DNA of 64,000 nucleotides from Escherichia phage JLBYU40, in sequence record NC_105514.1; one strand, written 5' to 3'. Of this stretch, positions 18,854-23,790 are shown piece after piece. Position 1 is the stretch's first letter, and each line of letters starts with the position of its first letter. The translations under genes and the position numbers were made by a program. The notes under the pieces are model-generated. The model had not been told where the DNA came from. It searched no databases and was given only the letters and a program-made list of their open reading frames with translations.

Positions 18854-19162
18854 ATGAGCGAACAGGTAAATCAAAACTATGAAGGACACGTTGATGACCA
18901 GTCCATCATACTTTGGGAGAAGGAGGGAGAACAAGTAAGATTAACAGTATCTGAATTTCGTGGGAATCTATACATGGGTATTCGTTACTGGCTTCTTGAT
19001 ATTAATGATGAATGGTTTCCAACGAAATCTGGCTTCTCTTTTCCTTACACCCTAGAAACAACATCACAGCTTTTCTATGCGTTTACACAGATTCTTAGCG
19101 AATCTGAGGTTTTACATGAAGTACAGAAACGAGCTGAAGAACTCAAAGCCAAGAATGCCTAG
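18854..19162 (+). CDS. Hypothetical protein (102 aa)
   Basis: ORF ending inside the loop of the next terminator. Confidence 0.45.
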   Translation: MSEQVNQNYEGHVDDQSIILWEKEGEQVRLTVSEFRGNLYMGIRYWLLDINDEWFPTKSGFSFPYTLETTSQLFYAFTQILSESEVLHEVQKRAEELKAKNA

Positions 19163-19176
19163 TTCTTGGCTTTTTC
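19148..19176 (+). terminator. Intrinsic terminator
   Basis: GCCAAGAA-tgcctag-TTCTTGGC followed by TTTTTC. Confidence 0.75.
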
Positions 19177-19189
19177 TTTATAAATGTAT

Positions 19190-19218
19190 TTGCTTTCAAC
19201 TCAGTTTTATTATATAAT
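19190..19218 (+). promoter_or_regulatory. Early promoter TTGCTT-N17-TATAAT
   Basis: tatttgctttcaactcagttttattatataat. Confidence 0.7.
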
Positions 19219-19248
19219 ATTTATATAAATTAATGAGAGGGTTGCAAA

Positions 19249-19521
19249 GTGAAAAAGATAAATATAAGCACACTTAAACCTTTCCCATACATCGGACAGC
19301 CTCTTATACTTATGTGGGAGGAGAAGATTAATGGAGAAAAGTATACTAAAATTAGAAGCGGGTATAAGCTGATTTCACTTCATTACGAAAAAGAAGTATT
19401 AACAGCTGAAATATACTCTCCGTTGTCAGATAGGCTAGTAAAAACTACGTATTTGCATCTCTGCAAAAATTTTACATGGCACGGATCCACTAGACAGCTC
19501 ACGTACTATGAGGCAGAATAA
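19249..19521 (+). CDS. Hypothetical protein (90 aa)
   Basis: GTG start after GAGAGGG RBS. Confidence 0.4.
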   Translation: MKKINISTLKPFPYIGQPLILMWEEKINGEKYTKIRSGYKLISLHYEKEVLTAEIYSPLSDRLVKTTYLHLCKNFTWHGSTRQLTYYEAE

Positions 19522-20493
19522 ATGACTAATGTAAAAGAATTTATCAAACGTTGCCAAGAAGCGTATTACCAGGGAATGTCTTTAATTTCTGACGAAGAAT
19601 ATGATCGTCTGATTAAAAGATTTCCGTTAGAAGAAGAGATCGGGCCTAAGGGTGATATTCCACATCTGTACCGTATGTATTCTTTACAGAAAGTTTATTA
19701 TAACCGTGGGGATAAACCACCATTTAATCCTTTAGGTCAGGTAGAAACTGATAAGTTAGATGGTTGTGCAATTTCTCTGCTATATATTAATGGCGAATTT
19801 GTTCAAGCATTAACCCGTGGTAATGGTATTCTGGGGAATGATGTCACAAGCAACGTAAGATTGCTGAACATCCCTAAAAAGATTTCCCAAAAAGTACCTA
19901 CCCAAATCACTGGTGAAGTTCTAATTACAAAGGAAGTAGAAAATAAGCGTAACTTTGCCTCTGGTGCTATTAACCTCAAAGATAGCGATGATTTCGTACA
20001 ACGTATCGGGGAAGGTGGTTTAATCTTCGTTGCATATGGTATCCAGTGTTCCCCTGATTCTGTAGGTATTACAGAATCGTATTTAAAAGATATGCTTTGG
20101 CTAGAGAATGAGAACTTCTTAACAGTTGTTAATGTGCGTTCCTTCTTTAAGTGGATTCCGACGGATGGTAAAGTTGTTCGTATTAATGACAACAACAAAT
20201 TCTTCCGAGAAGGCTGGACTAATAAATTCCCCCGTGGAGCATTTGCTATTAAAGAGGATGAAGAAGGCGAGATTACAACTCTTACTAAAGTTGAGTGGCA
20301 GGTAGGGGCTTCTGGTAAAGTAACTCCAGTTGGTTATTTCGAACCGGTAATTATTGATGATGCTACAATTGTTAAAGCGACTCTTAATAACGTTGATTAT
20401 ATTAACTCTCTCGATCTAGAGATCGGTTGCCAGATTCGAGTGATTCGTGCTGGTGGTGTAATCCCGTGTATAGTAGAGCGAGTATACGATTAA
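19522..20493 (+). CDS. ligA: NAD-dependent DNA ligase, N-terminal (adenylation/OB) fragment
   Basis: Adenylation motif KLDG in ETDKLDGCAISLLY; 323 aa, no Zn-finger/BRCT. Confidence 0.8.
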   Translation: MTNVKEFIKRCQEAYYQGMSLISDEEYDRLIKRFPLEEEIGPKGDIPHLYRMYSLQKVYYNRGDKPPFNPLGQVETDKLDGCAISLLYINGEFVQALTRGNGILGNDVTSNVRLLNIPKKISQKVPTQITGEVLITKEVENKRNFASGAINLKDSDDFVQRIGEGGLIFVAYGIQCSPDSVGITESYLKDMLWLENENFLTVVNVRSFFKWIPTDGKVVRINDNNKFFREGWTNKFPRGAFAIKEDEEGEITTLTKVEWQVGASGKVTPVGYFEPVIIDDATIVKATLNNVDYINSLDLEIGCQIRVIRAGGVIPCIVERVYD

Positions 20494-20543
20494 TACATAA
20501 CCCTTTGCTACCCATCTACCATATCGGAATTATAAAGTGGTTA

Positions 20544-20572
20544 TTGACATTTTCGCCGCTTAGGTATATACT
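20544..20572 (+). promoter_or_regulatory. Sigma70 promoter TTGACA-N17-TATACT inside the ligase spacer
   Basis: -35 at 20544-20549 and -10 at 20567-20572. Confidence 0.6.
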
Positions 20573-20636
20573 ATTATCATTCAGTTGAGGGATAGAAAGT
20601 TATGGCGAGGGTAAGCAAAGTTAGTTAAAATTGTAA

Positions 20637-20665
20637 TTGCTAAATGCTTAAATACTTGCTATAAT
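20637..20665 (+). promoter_or_regulatory. Sigma70 promoter TTGCTA-N17-TATAAT for the ligB fragment
   Basis: -35 at 20637-20642 and -10 at 20660-20665, followed by the ATAAATTGATAAGGAAG leader. Confidence 0.6.
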
Positions 20666-20695
20666 ATTTATATAAATTGATAAGGAAGAAATTTG

Positions 20696-21475
20696 ATGAA
20701 AATCGAAATTCCAACACAATGTCCCTCTTGTGGTTCTAAGCTAGATCTTGTCAACGGACAATTATTCTGTCGTAATAAGTCCAACTGTCCAGCGCAATCA
20801 AGTAAGTTAATTGAGAACTTCTGTACAAAAATGAAGTTAAAGGGCTTTGGCCCGAAAACTATTGAGAAGCTGGAGCTGACGAAGATTTCAGAACTATTTT
20901 ACCTAGCCGAAGAAGCTTTGGTTAGAGCCGTGGGTAGCAAGGTTGCCGCTAAGTTAATTAGCGAATTAAATACTAAAGTTCGCGGAGACATTGACTTTGG
21001 TTCAGTTCTCGGTTCTTTAGGAATCCCTCTAATTGGAGAGGTTGCAGCAAAGAAATTATCCCAAAATTGCACCAGTTTTCACGATGTGAAGGCTGATGGC
21101 AAAGCTGGAGAAAACTATAAAGCCTGGCTAAATTCCCCACAAGGCAAGGATGTTATCGAATTACCGTGGAAATTCACAACTGGTATTAAAGGTGCTAAAA
21201 CTGAGGTCATCATCACTGATGGTCTAGTAGCCCAACCAAATGGAATCACGGTGTGTATTACCGGATCTTTGCAAGATTTTGCAAATCGAACGGATGCAAC
21301 AAACTATTTAGAAGGTCTAGGATATACGGTTAAGAAATCCGTTACCAAAGATGTCAAATACCTAATCTGTGAGGATGAATCAAAACGTTCTTCCTCATCT
21401 TATAAGAAAGCCGAAACGAATGGGATAGAAATCCTGTCGATTAAAGAACTATTGGAGAAAAATAATAATGTCTAA
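20696..21475 (+). CDS. ligB: NAD-dependent DNA ligase, C-terminal (Zn-finger/HhH/BRCT) fragment
   Basis: Four-Cys Zn finger CPSCGSKLDLVNGQLFCRNKSNCP and C-terminal BRCT-like GITVCITGSL; ATG 20696. Confidence 0.8.
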   Translation: MKIEIPTQCPSCGSKLDLVNGQLFCRNKSNCPAQSSKLIENFCTKMKLKGFGPKTIEKLELTKISELFYLAEEALVRAVGSKVAAKLISELNTKVRGDIDFGSVLGSLGIPLIGEVAAKKLSQNCTSFHDVKADGKAGENYKAWLNSPQGKDVIELPWKFTTGIKGAKTEVIITDGLVAQPNGITVCITGSLQDFANRTDATNYLEGLGYTVKKSVTKDVKYLICEDESKRSSSSYKKAETNGIEILSIKELLEKNNNV

Positions 21476-22235
21476 ACTGAACTGGAACGTAGAAGGTGTA
21501 ACCGAGTCTCTGAAAGCAAAAGCCACTGCTCTGGGTGTTGCTGTAATCTCTCAAGAACAAGTAGCTGCTATTGCTGCTGAACTGGCTGCTGAAACTGGCA
21601 AAGATGTTACTGCTCGCTCTGTTGGCTCTAAACTGCGTAAAGAAGGTTTCGAAGTACAGAAAGCTAACGAAGTACAGAAATCTCCGTGGACTCCTGAGCA
21701 GGAAGCTGAACTGGTTGATTTCCTGAACGCTCATGCTGGTCAGTATACTTATGCTGAAATCGCTGCTGCTGTAGCTGGTGGTCAATTTGGTGCTAAGCAG
21801 GTACAGGGTAAGATTCTGAGTCTGGAAATGACCGCTTCTGTTAAACCAACCGAAAAAGCTGCTGCTGTTCGTTCCTTCACTCCGGATGAAGAAACTGATT
21901 TTGTTAATCAGGTTGTTGCTGGTGCTACTATTGAAGCTATCGCTGCTCACTTCGGTCGTAATATCAAGCAGATCCGCGGTAAAGCTCTGAGCCTGCTTCG
22001 TGAAGGTCGTATCGCCGCTATGCCGGTACAGGAAACCTCAAGTGCTAAAACTCGTGAAGATCTGTTAGAAGGTCTGGATCTGGTTAACATGACTGTTGCT
22101 GAGATCGCTGAGAAAACTGGTAAATCTGAGCGCGGTGTTAAATCTATGCTGTCTCGTCGTGGTCTGGTTGCTAAGGACTATGATGGTGCCGCTAAGCGTG
22201 CTAAACTGGATGCAAAAGCTGCGGCTGCTGAATAA
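21468..22235 (+). CDS. Putative abundant DNA-binding protein with four HTH-like repeats
   Basis: Repeats of about 35 aa (e.g. VAAIAAELAAETGKDVTARSVGSKLRKEG, VAEIAEKTGKSERGVKSMLSRRGL); strongly host-optimal codon usage. Confidence 0.5.
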   Translation: MSKLNWNVEGVTESLKAKATALGVAVISQEQVAAIAAELAAETGKDVTARSVGSKLRKEGFEVQKANEVQKSPWTPEQEAELVDFLNAHAGQYTYAEIAAAVAGGQFGAKQVQGKILSLEMTASVKPTEKAAAVRSFTPDEETDFVNQVVAGATIEAIAAHFGRNIKQIRGKALSLLREGRIAAMPVQETSSAKTREDLLEGLDLVNMTVAEIAEKTGKSERGVKSMLSRRGLVAKDYDGAAKRAKLDAKAAAAE

Positions 22236-22252: not shown

Positions 22253-22286
22253 AAGGGGAGGGGGCTATGCTCCTTCCCCTTTTTGC
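22253..22286 (+). terminator. Intrinsic terminator
   Basis: AAGGGGA...TCCCCTT followed by TTTTTG. Confidence 0.6.
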
Positions 22287-22317: not shown

Positions 22318-23790
22318 ATGACCTTGTTTAACGTGCAAGCTGTAGTGTTGAAGATGCTTCTAGCTTCCGAACAGAAGCAAATAGCATTGGAAACATTCTC
22401 AAAACTGCATAAAGATCATTTTAATGACGCTTTCTCCTCAATTTACCAAGCCGTCCAGAATTATTATAAAAAATATAACACAATGCCGTCCATTGATGCA
22501 CTGATGCTTGAGGCTAATAGGAACGCCCGCCTTTCTCAAGCTCTAGTCGTTTTAGCTAACACTCAAATTCCAGAAGTTAGCATGGAACAGGCACTTGAAG
22601 TCCTAGAGGCCGAGTATACACAGGATTTATTCCTGAAGCTTCTAGAAACAGACGTGCTTCAAGATTTAACAATGCTGGATCAGGGAGAAATTCTTAACCG
22701 AGTTGCCTCCCTTCACTTAAAATTAGAAGAGAAAGTAACGAATACTGGAAAAGTATTCAACGCAGATAACATGCGTATTTTCCAGAGAGAAGAAGATACC
22801 AAACTGAACTTAATCGCTCTTGGTATTTGTAATGAGTTCGACGCTCAAATTGGTTTAGCTCGCACAGAAACGTTACTGCTTGGTGGTTGGCGTGGTACTG
22901 GTAAATCCATTATCTGTTCAAACATACAGGTTCAGCAATATTTGAATGGGGATATTGCTCCATACTTCTCAATTGAGATGAAAGAACATGAAGTATTTAG
23001 ACGTAATCTAGCCATGTTAGCCGGTGTATCAGCACTAGCAATGCGTAATAATACTCTAGAAGGTGCAGCTCTGTTGAGATTAGCCAGAACTAGAGCTAGG
23101 ATGTTTAATGGTGGTGAAGAGCTTTTCGATAACTTCGTTAAACAGTACACAATGGCTAAGATGAGTGATTTCTACGATATGGAAAGTAAGCTAATAGAAG
23201 GATATGAGCTACATACTCCTATGATTATTGTTTATGATCCTGAGCTGTCTATTACAACAGTTGACGTAGAATTAAATAAATTAGTTGCTAGATATGGGGA
23301 TAAAGTTACAGTAGCTTTACTGGACTATATTAACCAAACCCGACTTCCAGACTCTAAAACCATTGATATGTATGACTGGAAAGAACAGATGGTTGTTAGC
23401 TCGTCTTTCAAATCTATCTGCCAGAAACATAACGTGGCTGGTGTAGCCCCTTACCAGATTGATCAAGATGGTAGAACACGTATGTCAAAGGGGATTCTTG
23501 ATTCCGCAGACATGGCTGCTAATCTTAATGCTGCAAAAGCTGATAATGGTCAAGGTGCTATTATGTTTGACTTCGTTAAGACTCGTTCTTCTGATAGCGT
23601 GAAGTTTATGCCTAAAATGAACTGGGAAACCCTACGGATGGATAACACTACCAACCTAGCAATGGAAGATATATCTCAAATGGAAGCTGAGTTCGTTATC
23701 CCTATTGAGAAGGATAAGCCGGCTCAATCTAAACGTGCTAAGAAAGACAAAGCTGAAAATTCAACGGGTGAACAGGCCAGCGATATATGA
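22318..23790 (+). CDS. DnaB-like replicative helicase (RecA-fold ATPase)
   Basis: Walker A GGWRGTGKS, Walker B-like ALLDYI; start at ATG 22318 after AAAGGAGA RBS. Confidence 0.6.
   Translation: MTLFNVQAVVLKMLLASEQKQIALETFSKLHKDHFNDAFSSIYQAVQNYYKKYNTMPSIDALMLEANRNARLSQALVVLANTQIPEVSMEQALEVLEAEYTQDLFLKLLETDVLQDLTMLDQGEILNRVASLHLKLEEKVTNTGKVFNADNMRIFQREEDTKLNLIALGICNEFDAQIGLARTETLLLGGWRGTGKSIICSNIQVQQYLNGDIAPYFSIEMKEHEVFRRNLAMLAGVSALAMRNNTLEGAALLRLARTRARMFNGGEELFDNFVKQYTMAKMSDFYDMESKLIEGYELHTPMIIVYDPELSITTVDVELNKLVARYGDKVTVALLDYINQTRLPDSKTIDMYDWKEQMVVSSSFKSICQKHNVAGVAPYQIDQDGRTRMSKGILDSADMAANLNAAKADNGQGAIMFDFVKTRSSDSVKFMPKMNWETLRMDNTTNLAMEDISQMEAEFVIPIEKDKPAQSKRAKKDKAENSTGEQASDI

Follow-up and report, generated by a model that had tools for sequence, protein, structure and literature searches.

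Phage T5 and related ligases

Single-chain LigA enzymes need the Zn finger, HhH and BRCT domains for nick binding and for the steps after adenylation. A LigN truncation with the Ia, adenylation and OB domains self-adenylates but cannot ligate (PMC1684257). The T5 record (AY692264) annotates two genes, ligA and ligB, as ligase subunits A and B, together with both promoters of the spacer between them; a 'putative promoter' is also annotated directly 5' of ligA. T5 DNA carries site-specific nicks with the consensus R/GCGCRGG (PMC3517423). A second described system is PDB entry 9HU3 (released 2026), entitled 'PR1 phage heterodimeric DNA ligase in complex with 21-mer nicked DNA containing phage nick sequence'. 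Its chains A and B are 100% identical to proteins of Providencia phage PR1/PSTCR5. A literature search found no paper describing this work.

The window analysed here is a 64,000-nucleotide stretch of Escherichia phage JLBYU40 (NC_105514.1). The genome that hosts the ligase locus is that of a T5-like phage (Tequintavirus), ~96% identical to many T5-like phages; over 2.6 kb of the locus, nucleotide identity to many such phages with annotated ligA/ligB subunits A and B is 96-97%. The initial annotation had noted that a split ligase is reported for T5-like phages, and the T5 record bears this out: the split ligase of the window is already known, a T5-type LigA/LigB pair that is real but ordinary. 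The locus very probably encodes a T5-type two-subunit NAD+-dependent ligase, derived by an old fission in a domain linker, with a spacer that is a tandem early-promoter module. Its features are listed in Table 1.

Table 1. Features of the ligase locus, with positions in the window
Feature	Position	Strand	Description
PC4-like gene	18854-19162		Upstream of the ligA unit
Terminator-like hairpin and T-run	19145-19173	+	Intrinsic type, ends the PC4-like gene; from terminator scan and sequence
Putative promoter of the ORF90-ligA unit	19190-19218	+	TTGCTT-17-TATAAT
90-aa accessory ORF	19249-19521	+	phrog_35018, function unknown; abuts the ligA start
ligA, ligase subunit A	19522-20493	+	323 aa: domain Ia, nucleotidyltransferase, OB fold
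ligA-ligB spacer, non-coding	20494-20695	+	202 bp to ATG (199 bp to TTG), 31% GC
Promoter P-K28b	20544-20572	+	TTGACA-17-TATACT, 11/12 consensus match
8-codon tiny ORF MARVSKVS	20602-20628	+	Between the two promoters
Promoter P-K28a	20637-20665	+	TTGCTA-17-TATAAT, 10/12 match; extended -10 TG at 20657-20658
ligB ribosome-binding site AAGGAAG	20682-20688	+	7 nt before ATG 20696
ligB, ligase subunit B	20696-21475	+	259 aa: Cys4 Zn finger, HhH, linker, BRCT
D5 DNA-binding protein gene	21468-22235	+	From annotation in relatives
Strong terminator-like hairpin and T-run	22253-22281	+	13 pairs, 8 GC; from terminator scan

The ligase subunits

ligA and ligB are co-oriented ORFs in different frames and are annotated as ligase subunits A and B in relatives. 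Both proteins match PHROGs over their full length (LigA, phrog_3359, E-value: 1.3e-175; LigB, phrog_3498, E-value: 1.6e-135). LigA has the conserved domains PF01653 (DNA_ligase_aden; E-value: 3.4e-23) and PF03120 (DNA_ligase_OB; E-value: 3.8e-22, 78 bits against a cutoff of 32.9). K78 in its KLDG motif aligns with E. coli K115 and is the predicted adenylation lysine. Domain Ia is also present, with LigA matching TIGR00575 from model position 3 and with AYYQGMSLISDEEYDRLI (residues 14-31) aligning with Thermus filiformis RYYVLADPEISDAEYDRLL. The NMN-binding residues of this domain are presumably those corresponding to E. coli Y22, H23, D32, Y35 and D36.

LigB has a Cys4 Zn finger (CPSC...C...C; C9, C12, C25 and C31) that is invariant in 23 homologues, and C9 and C12 align with E. 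coli C408 and C411. It has the conserved domain PF00533 (BRCT; E-value: 1.7e-8, 35 bits against a cutoff of 21.3). The Pfam score for HHH_2 (PF12826) is 24.4 bits, slightly under the cutoff of 27; LigB 3-122 aligns with E. coli 402-529 and the AF2 model of LigB matches 2owo_A over 175 columns, and the HhH region is taken to be present. This model (pLDDT 81.6) finds 9hu3_B and 2owo in Foldseek searches, and residues 163-180 form a disordered linker. The ORFs and their domains agree with the initial description of an adenylation/OB half (with KLDG) and a Zn-finger/HhH/BRCT half as separate ORFs.

The start of ligB is likely to be ATG 20696. TTG 20693, the mechanical ORF start, was rejected: it lies just 4 nt from the ribosome-binding site, and PDB 9hu3_B and all homologues begin with MKI or MQI at the Met equivalent to this ATG.

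Position of the break

In place of the single polypeptide of the canonical LigA equivalog, the locus has two ORFs and a 202-bp spacer, and each half scores far under the TIGR00575 cutoff (175 and 104 bits against 444). Alignment to single-chain NAD ligases, as had been proposed for locating the break point, places it at E. coli LigA D398|T399 (Asp398|Thr399), within the linker between the OB fold and the Zn finger. A single alignment to E. coli LigA 284-529 spans the junction of concatenated LigA and LigB, with D323 opposite D398 and C332 of the concatenate opposite Cys408. The two halves tile the LigA models, LigA covering positions 3-378 and LigB positions 388-651 of the 652 in TIGR00575, and 9-381 and 388-654, respectively, of phrog_3869; at the junction, no residues are lost and no extra in-frame residues are present. 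The break position is identical in five split relatives.

The same split arrangement is found in >400 independently sequenced phage genomes, and 343 records contain ligase orthologues at 95-99% identity. In tblastn searches, all sampled relatives at 48% to 99% identity have the ligase in two pieces; phage ligases at <30% identity are in one piece. Nearly all of the best 120 LigB homologues are 247-263 aa long, the three exceptions being shorter still. The split and the promoter pair described below persist among the sampled Demerecviridae down to ~48% identity. This distribution, together with the PR1 homologue solved as a heterodimer on nicked DNA, favours the first of the two readings offered by the initial annotation, that of a fixed two-subunit ligase.

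Transcription units and the spacer

The gene order PC4-like, ligA, ligB, D5, dnaB is present in the window. The ligA transcription unit is bounded on its 5' side by the hairpin that ends the PC4-like gene, and the putative promoter that follows this hairpin has a 19-nt sequence, TATAATATTTATATAAATT, in common with P-K28a. Downstream, ligB and D5 share 8 nt at the ligB stop and the D5 start, which would place D5 in the promoter-driven unit of ligB; ligB-D5 adjacency is kept in all loci retrieved from relatives. The second hairpin is likely to be the end of the ligB-D5 unit.

The spacer has four to six stops in each frame. No terminator was detected in it by a terminator scan, and no significant RNA structure was found, its folding being no better than that of shuffled sequences (z-score -0.40). 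A search of Rfam over positions 19000-22000 gave no meaningful family and no intron; the sole match, sub-threshold, was U4atac (E-value: 0.76; 21056-21154, minus strand, within ligB). On the Rfam result and the fold z-score, the reading of the spacer as an RNA element was rejected.

The initial annotation had described a ~200-bp spacer with two consensus promoters and a tiny ORF, all of which are found. The two sites are, by sequence, the T5 early promoters P-K28b and P-K28a, with activity predicted from consensus, conservation and GenBank annotation, and transcription would start near 20579 and near 20672, respectively. P-K28b falls inside the T5 feature 'promoter P-K 28b' (L003 1775-1849, window 20524-20598) and P-K28a inside 'promoter P-K 28a' (L003 1868-1942, window 20617-20691); an annotated BF23 promoter also matches the P-K28a region at 89.8%. 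The way the promoters are named in GenBank points to experiments done earlier; a literature search for the K28a/K28b promoters found no paper describing them. Sites matching at least 11/12 of the sigma-70 consensus number just seven in the entire 64 kb (both strands), and two separate sites of at least 10/12 in one spacer have a probability of 0.004 (20,000 Markov-1 simulated spacers).

Comparison of the spacer across relatives, also proposed at the outset, places the promoter pair at about -152 and -58, counted from the ATG of ligB, in 10 of 11 relatives, Vibrio phages with 50% protein identity among them. The P-K28b hexamers are invariant in the same proportion of relatives, at -141 to -155. 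Within the spacer alignment, the blocks without variation are the hexamers, and TTGnTATAATA of P-K28a is invariant family-wide. The tiny ORF loses its start codon and frame in Klebsiella, Serratia, Providencia, Proteus, Vibrio and Pantoea relatives. It is judged to be a chance ORF, and a role as leader peptide was dismissed in view of this lack of conservation.

Between the stop of ligA and the two promoters, relatives have differing small accessory genes, always upstream of the pair, and this segment can be described as a cargo slot. Pfam and PHROGs classify these genes as NADAR (Proteus phage Stubb), DprA-like or of unknown function. These classifications rule out homing endonucleases as the cargo, none being found in the slot of any relative examined. 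Positions 20507-20540, roughly the first 35 bp of the spacer, align with the 3' end of a 61-aa ORF of Salmonella phage S132, for which there is no PHROG match.

Single-chain ligases at the same locus

Metagenomic contigs of uncultured T5-like phages encode compact single-chain ligases (555-578 aa) directly before a D5 homologue (E-values: 5e-17 to 2e-55), and one contig has PC4, ligase, D5 and DnaB in that order. These fused ligases (P0149, P0181, P0220 and others) share the compact architecture and the locus of the window enzyme, with identities of 35-45% in the A part and 29-38% in the B part, and have 3-15 more linker residues where the T5-type genes are cut. A single-chain ligase at a shared locus suggests an old gene fission. 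A neighbour-joining tree of LigB-type regions is star-like and poorly resolved, with fused forms scattered, and is uninformative on the direction of fission or fusion. Internal promoter-like sites in the fused orthologues number one to three per gene, too few for any interpretation.

Alternative explanations

Two adjacent ORFs that together equal one LigA could also be a single-chain ligase gene that was disabled by mutation, or one that was wrongly sequenced or assembled, which would make the locus a pseudogene. This is scarcely conceivable: conservation of both halves extends down to ~48% identity, the catalytic and Zn residues being invariant, ligB has its own ribosome-binding site, ATG and invariant N-terminus, the non-coding insert with stops in all frames is unlike a frameshift, and a homologue has been crystallised as two chains. 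Judging from the sequence records, assembly error is excluded as the source of the split because >400 independent genomes share it. The other reading of the initial annotation, that a mobile element (a group I intron, an intein or a free-standing homing-endonuclease gene) once interrupted a single ligase gene and left the spacer as a scar on its excision or decay, is very unlikely and was not upheld. The break does fall in a domain linker, the slot takes foreign genes in relatives, and a small ORF like that of S132, since lost, may have left part of the spacer behind. However, neither the Rfam search nor the fold z-score points to an intron or RNA family, the halves tile the LigA models with none of the extra residues of an intein, and the cargo genes lie upstream of the promoter pair and resemble no homing endonuclease. 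The spacer holds the deeply conserved P-K28b/P-K28a module, and therefore does not appear to be a scar.

A further explanation concerns the function of LigB, which may be uncoupled from LigA and made in excess for a second, ligase-independent role, for instance as a BRCT scaffold that binds nicks or DNA during replication, or in the handling of the site-specific T5 nicks. Excess LigB would be expected because of the two extra strong promoters and the translational link to D5. The family-wide conservation of the promoter pair-ligB-D5 module, the ligB/D5 overlap, the 'phage nick sequence' used in 9HU3 and the nicks in T5 DNA are consistent with such a role, but the promoters may simply serve D5 and LigB consists of the standard C-terminal modules of LigA with nothing further; this explanation is considered unlikely. 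It is likewise improbable that the split is an adaptive rewiring instead of a neutral change, in which a tandem strong-promoter module fixed in the OB/Zn linker put LigB in the highly expressed and translationally coupled ligB-D5 unit and uncoupled its dosage from that of LigA, such that LigB could act alone. Were this the case, LigB, as a nick-sensing Zn-HhH-BRCT protein, could bind or protect the site-specific nicks of T5-type genomes or scaffold replication proteins, and the fission event could be reconstructed with the help of the single-chain orthologues of uncultured T5-like phages.

Proposed model

The two-subunit ligase of the window is proposed to have arisen and to work in the following way. 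An old fission in the OB/Zn-finger linker would have separated the genes with no loss of residues. By homology, LigA would use its NMN-binding domain Ia, K78 and the OB fold to self-adenylate from NAD+, and LigB would supply the Zn finger, HhH and BRCT domains for nick binding and the post-adenylation steps. By analogy with the PR1 homologue (~53-55% identity), LigA and LigB may associate non-covalently to form a heterodimer that clamps nicked DNA and seals the nick. With no terminator after ligA, ligB could be read from the upstream promoter too. P-K28b and P-K28a would provide additional transcripts that cover ligB and the overlapping D5 and end at the 22253-22281 terminator.

As a discovery the locus counts for little: GenBank and the literature have contained the split ligase of T5 since 2005, and the heterodimer-DNA structure of a homologue is solved. 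It is nevertheless a good case from nature of an enzyme that is divided at the linker between two domains and whose parts come together again without a covalent bond. Useful by-products are the constant distances of the promoter pair from ligB throughout the family and the cargo site upstream of the pair, and the single-chain ligases of uncultured T5-like phages offer natural fused/split pairs for comparison.

Comparison with known ligases

In the order of their domains, and in their catalytic, domain Ia and Zn residues, the phage halves agree with E. coli LigA (PDB 2OWO; TIGR00575). The E. coli enzyme is one 671-aa polypeptide, whereas the phage enzyme totals 582 aa over two chains, with ~37 aa fewer before KxDG and ~30 fewer inside the NTase domain than single-chain LigA.

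The PR1 ligase (PDB 9HU3/9I5I) is an orthologous two-chain enzyme broken at the same place, and its promoter pair has the same distances as that of the window. Chain 9hu3_A aligns with LigA 4-323 (E-value: 5e-104) and 9hu3_B with LigB 1-255 (E-value: 4e-80). The PR1 subunits are just ~53-55% identical to those of the window, and the PR1 structure is experimental whereas the window enzyme is known from sequence. The length of PR1 chain A is 339 aa in the PDB entry and 333 aa when taken from the PSTCR5 locus; LigB of the window exceeds chain B by 10-11 aa.

The closest system is T5 itself. Its ligA and ligB (T5p114/T5p115, AAU05253/AAU05254) have the same genes, order, break point and spacer as the window, with 98.9% identity across the ligA-ligB junction, and are flanked, as in the window, by PC4-like, D5 and dnaB genes. 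Relative to T5 st0, the window differs by point differences of a few percent and by the 90-aa ORF between the upstream promoter and ligA, which is missing in T5 st0 and found in T5_ev212 and oldekolle.

Organization of the split ligase

The NAD-dependent DNA ligase of JLBYU40 is encoded by two genes in different reading frames, ligA and ligB. The ligA stop and ligB ATG are separated by a 202-bp spacer with 31% GC and four to six stop codons in each frame. The ligA product has the NAD-ligase adenylation domain (Pfam E-value: 3.4e-23) and OB domain (3.8e-22), while the ligB product has a BRCT domain (1.7e-8) and an HhH match near threshold. The AlphaFold model of LigB (pLDDT 81.6) contains a Zn ribbon, helical HhH region, disordered linker (163-180) and BRCT fold, and matches 9hu3_B and E. 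coli LigA in Foldseek. In total, the phage enzyme is compact (582 aa versus 671 aa in E. coli). These ORFs and domains, together with the promoter scan below, therefore show that the initial annotation was accurate in describing separate adenylation/OB and Zn-finger/HhH/BRCT genes with two promoters in a spacer of about 200 bp. Because the MKI N-terminus is conserved, the ligB start is probably the ATG equivalent to 20696. Annotated starts vary by record: for Pantoea phage AAS21 (L008 1734) the start is placed at an ATG farther upstream, within the promoter leader, and for T5 st0 (L003 1944) at the TTG.

Features of the ligase locus and of the ligA-ligB interval in relatives (L005 and L006 are local coordinates of Stubb and S132)
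Feature	Location	Context	Details
Terminator	19145-19173	5' of ORF90-ligA unit	
Promoter, P(19.2 kb)	19190-19218	5' of ORF90-ligA unit	19 nt common with P-K28a
ORF90	19249-19521	between upstream promoter and ligA	90 aa, phrog_35018, function unknown
ligA	19522-20493	co-oriented with ligB	323 aa
P-K28b	20544-20572	spacer	TTGACA-17-TATACT, 11/12 (promoter scan)
8-codon ORF	20602-20628	spacer	
P-K28a	20637-20665	spacer	TTGCTA-17-TATAAT, extended -10 TG, 10/12 (promoter scan)
ligB	20693/20696-21475	co-oriented with ligA	260 aa from TTG, 259 aa from ATG
D5 gene	21468-22235		
Strong terminator	22253-22281	3' of D5	
Cargo, T5, Sealy, PSTCR5		ligA stop to promoter pair	none
Cargo, S132 (Salmonella)	L006 1752-1937	ligA stop to promoter pair	unannotated 61-aa ORF, no PHROG match
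Cargo, AAS21		ligA stop to promoter pair	108-aa ORF
Cargo, Kamaji		ligA stop to promoter pair	204-aa ORF, function unknown
Cargo, Proteus phage Stubb	L005 2236-2853	ligA stop to promoter pair	NADAR-domain protein (PF08719, 1.6e-31)
Cargo, River4		ligA stop to promoter pair	three ORFs, one DprA-like

LigA and LigB tile full-length LigA models end to end, covering positions 3-378 and 388-651 of TIGR00575 (652 positions) and 9-381 and 388-654 of phrog_3869 (656 positions). The initial annotation had proposed locating the break point by alignment to single-chain NAD ligases. When the concatenated proteins are aligned with E. coli LigA 284-529 (phmmer), the alignment runs unbroken across the junction, with the last LigA residue (D323) paired with Asp398, LigB M1 with Thr399 and the first zinc cysteine of LigB with Cys408. 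The cut therefore lies within the short OB/Zn-finger linker, and every domain is retained. K78 of the KLDG motif, correctly assigned from the outset to the adenylation half, pairs with the adenylation lysine K115. LigA also has the domain Ia motif YY...D..YD; TRGNG, GEV, DG and the motif V lysine are all retained, and the four zinc cysteines of LigB are invariant in 23 homologues.

Spacer promoters and transcription

The best two promoter sites of the 3.6-kb neighbourhood both fall in the spacer. Sites scoring at least 11/12 number only seven in the 64-kb window (both strands), and just 0.4% of composition-matched simulated spacers contain two distinct sites scoring 10/12 or better. The P-K 28b/28a names are presumably the Bujard laboratory nomenclature for cloned T5 promoters. 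Near-consensus promoters were also observed at 53170-53142 (-) and 46001-45973 (-); their flanks probably correspond to those of two classical T5 promoters, P-J5 and P-D/E20, with P-D/E20 including the RBS that expression vectors employ.

Comparison of the spacer across relatives, also suggested in the initial annotation, covered 11 phages: T5, T5_ev212, oldekolle, S132, Klebsiella Sealy, Pantoea AAS21, Providencia PSTCR5, Serratia Kamaji, Proteus Stubb, Vibrio River4 and Vibrio 70E35-1. The promoter pair is conserved. TTGAC(A/G/C)-17-TATA(C/A)T lies 141-155 nt 5' of the ligB ATG in 10/11, and a TTGnTATAAT extended -10 promoter lies ~57-60 nt 5' of the ligB start in 11/11; in AAS21 alone the offset seems smaller, owing to a misplaced start annotation. 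The spacer alignment is 66% identical overall with the hexamers as its invariant blocks, and conservation of the pair persists at ~50% protein identity.

The alternative raised initially, that the spacer is the scar of an excised mobile element, finds no support. Rfam gave no intron or other meaningful family, no significant RNA fold was found in the spacer, and no homing endonuclease is present among the genes between the ligA stop and promoter pair of the relatives compared. The tiny ORF reported in the spacer does exist, but its start and frame are lost beyond the closest relatives. Judged from these alignments, what separates ligA from ligB is a conserved promoter module rather than a scar.

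Transcription from P(19.2 kb) would pass through ORF90 and ligA and read through toward ligB, as the terminator scan found no terminator 3' of ligA. P-K28b and P-K28a would join this read-through to transcribe ligB and D5, whose start overlaps the ligB stop by 8 nt, as far as the strong terminator. The usual annotated dnaB start, ATG 22267, falls inside the hairpin of this terminator, so dnaB translation may in fact begin farther 3', e.g. at a Met near 22318.

Variable cargo beside ligA

The ligA-ligB distance varies because the stretch from the ligA stop to the promoter pair holds different genes in different relatives. The Kamaji and Stubb inserts have no relationship to each other. NADAR proteins have been associated with undoing the ADP-ribosylation of DNA, and so the Stubb gene, annotated merely as hypothetical, may be anti-defence cargo beside an NAD-using enzyme. 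As the 3' end of the S132 ORF aligns to 20507-20540, T5-type spacers may begin with a remnant of this 61-aa ORF, since lost. Cargo likewise varies in a slot 5' of ligA, since ORF90 is absent from T5 st0 and oldekolle carries a further 66-aa ORF (phrog_8267) at the same place.

Origin of the split

In a tblastn search of 50,697 phage records with concatenated LigA+LigB, all sampled records between 99% and ~48% identity show the ligase in two pieces, including those of Salmonella, Escherichia, Klebsiella, Pantoea, Providencia and Vibrio phages. Below 30% identity, phage ligases (those of jumbo phages, Listeria phages and others) come as one piece. Among the best 120 LigB homologues of a 5.8-billion-protein collection, nearly all are 247-263 aa, the three exceptions being shorter (190-214 aa). 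With LigB as query, an exhaustive HMMER search recovered stand-alone LigB-like proteins (among P0121-P0235, ~235-265 aa) that form >100 clusters at 50% identity in metagenomes, a diversity far above that of cultured Demerecviridae.

HMMER also found ~10 compact single-chain ligases (555-578 aa), their LigB-like part beginning near residue 311-334. These fused proteins have 3-15 extra linker residues exactly at the T5-type cut. Three were traced to contigs, all with a D5 homologue directly 3' (E-values: 5e-17, 2e-55, 2e-44), and one keeps the T5 order of PC4-like, ligase, D5, DnaB and primase. These genes come from uncultured T5-like phages, and each has a promoter-like site scoring 10/12 or better (L012 3355, L013 8992, L014 6025) within ~50-250 nt 3' of the point that corresponds to the split. 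Such sites may be internal D5 promoters older than the fission, or chance. Because all outgroups are single-chain, gene fission at the ligase locus within the T5-like lineage is the simplest reading; the resolution of the NJ tree is too low to show whether fission occurred once.

Proposed mechanism and comparison with known ligases

A LigN fragment with only the Ia, adenylation and OB domains self-adenylates normally and does not ligate (PMC1684257), so the steps that follow adenylation require the ZnF-HhH-BRCT part. By analogy with such truncations of single-chain enzymes, LigA would self-adenylate from NAD+, LigB would contribute nick and duplex binding, and the two would jointly seal nicks. 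Homology strongly favours this three-step scheme for the JLBYU40 proteins.

The split is real, and the fixed two-subunit ligase proposed in the initial annotation is correct, given the two pieces in all sampled relatives and a two-chain homologue of solved structure. The split, subunit names, promoters and heterodimer are all already annotated or published.

Hundreds of T5-like phages (Tequintavirus and Epseptimavirus, family Demerecviridae) match the 2.6-kb region at 95-97% identity, and T5 itself reaches 98.9% over 701 bp across the ligA-ligB junction. A split ligase had indeed been reported for this group, in GenBank and in print since 2005 (PMC1684257): T5 record AY692264 contains ligA (T5p114) and ligB (T5p115), listed as subunits in a 2013 paper (PMC3632103). 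Its spacer carries the features 'promoter P-K 28b' and 'promoter P-K 28a', which transfer to 20524-20598 and 20617-20691 and enclose exactly both hexamer pairs found. T5 thus has both genes and both promoters in common with JLBYU40, although T5 st0 lacks the 90-aa ORF 5' of ligA. The three single-chain ligases traced to contigs share the 3' D5 homologue but, unlike the JLBYU40 enzyme, are unsplit. The closest solved structure is the two-chain PDB 9HU3/9I5I (9HU3 released 2026-01-14), 'PR1 phage heterodimeric DNA ligase in complex with 21-mer nicked DNA containing phage nick sequence'. LigA is matched by chain A (339 aa; E-value: 5e-104) and LigB by chain B (248 aa; 4e-80), which shows 100% identity with Providencia phages PR1 and PSTCR5. 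The orthologous PR1 enzyme therefore assembles from two chains; its heterodimer on nicked DNA is known from structure, and by homology the JLBYU40 pair would assemble likewise.
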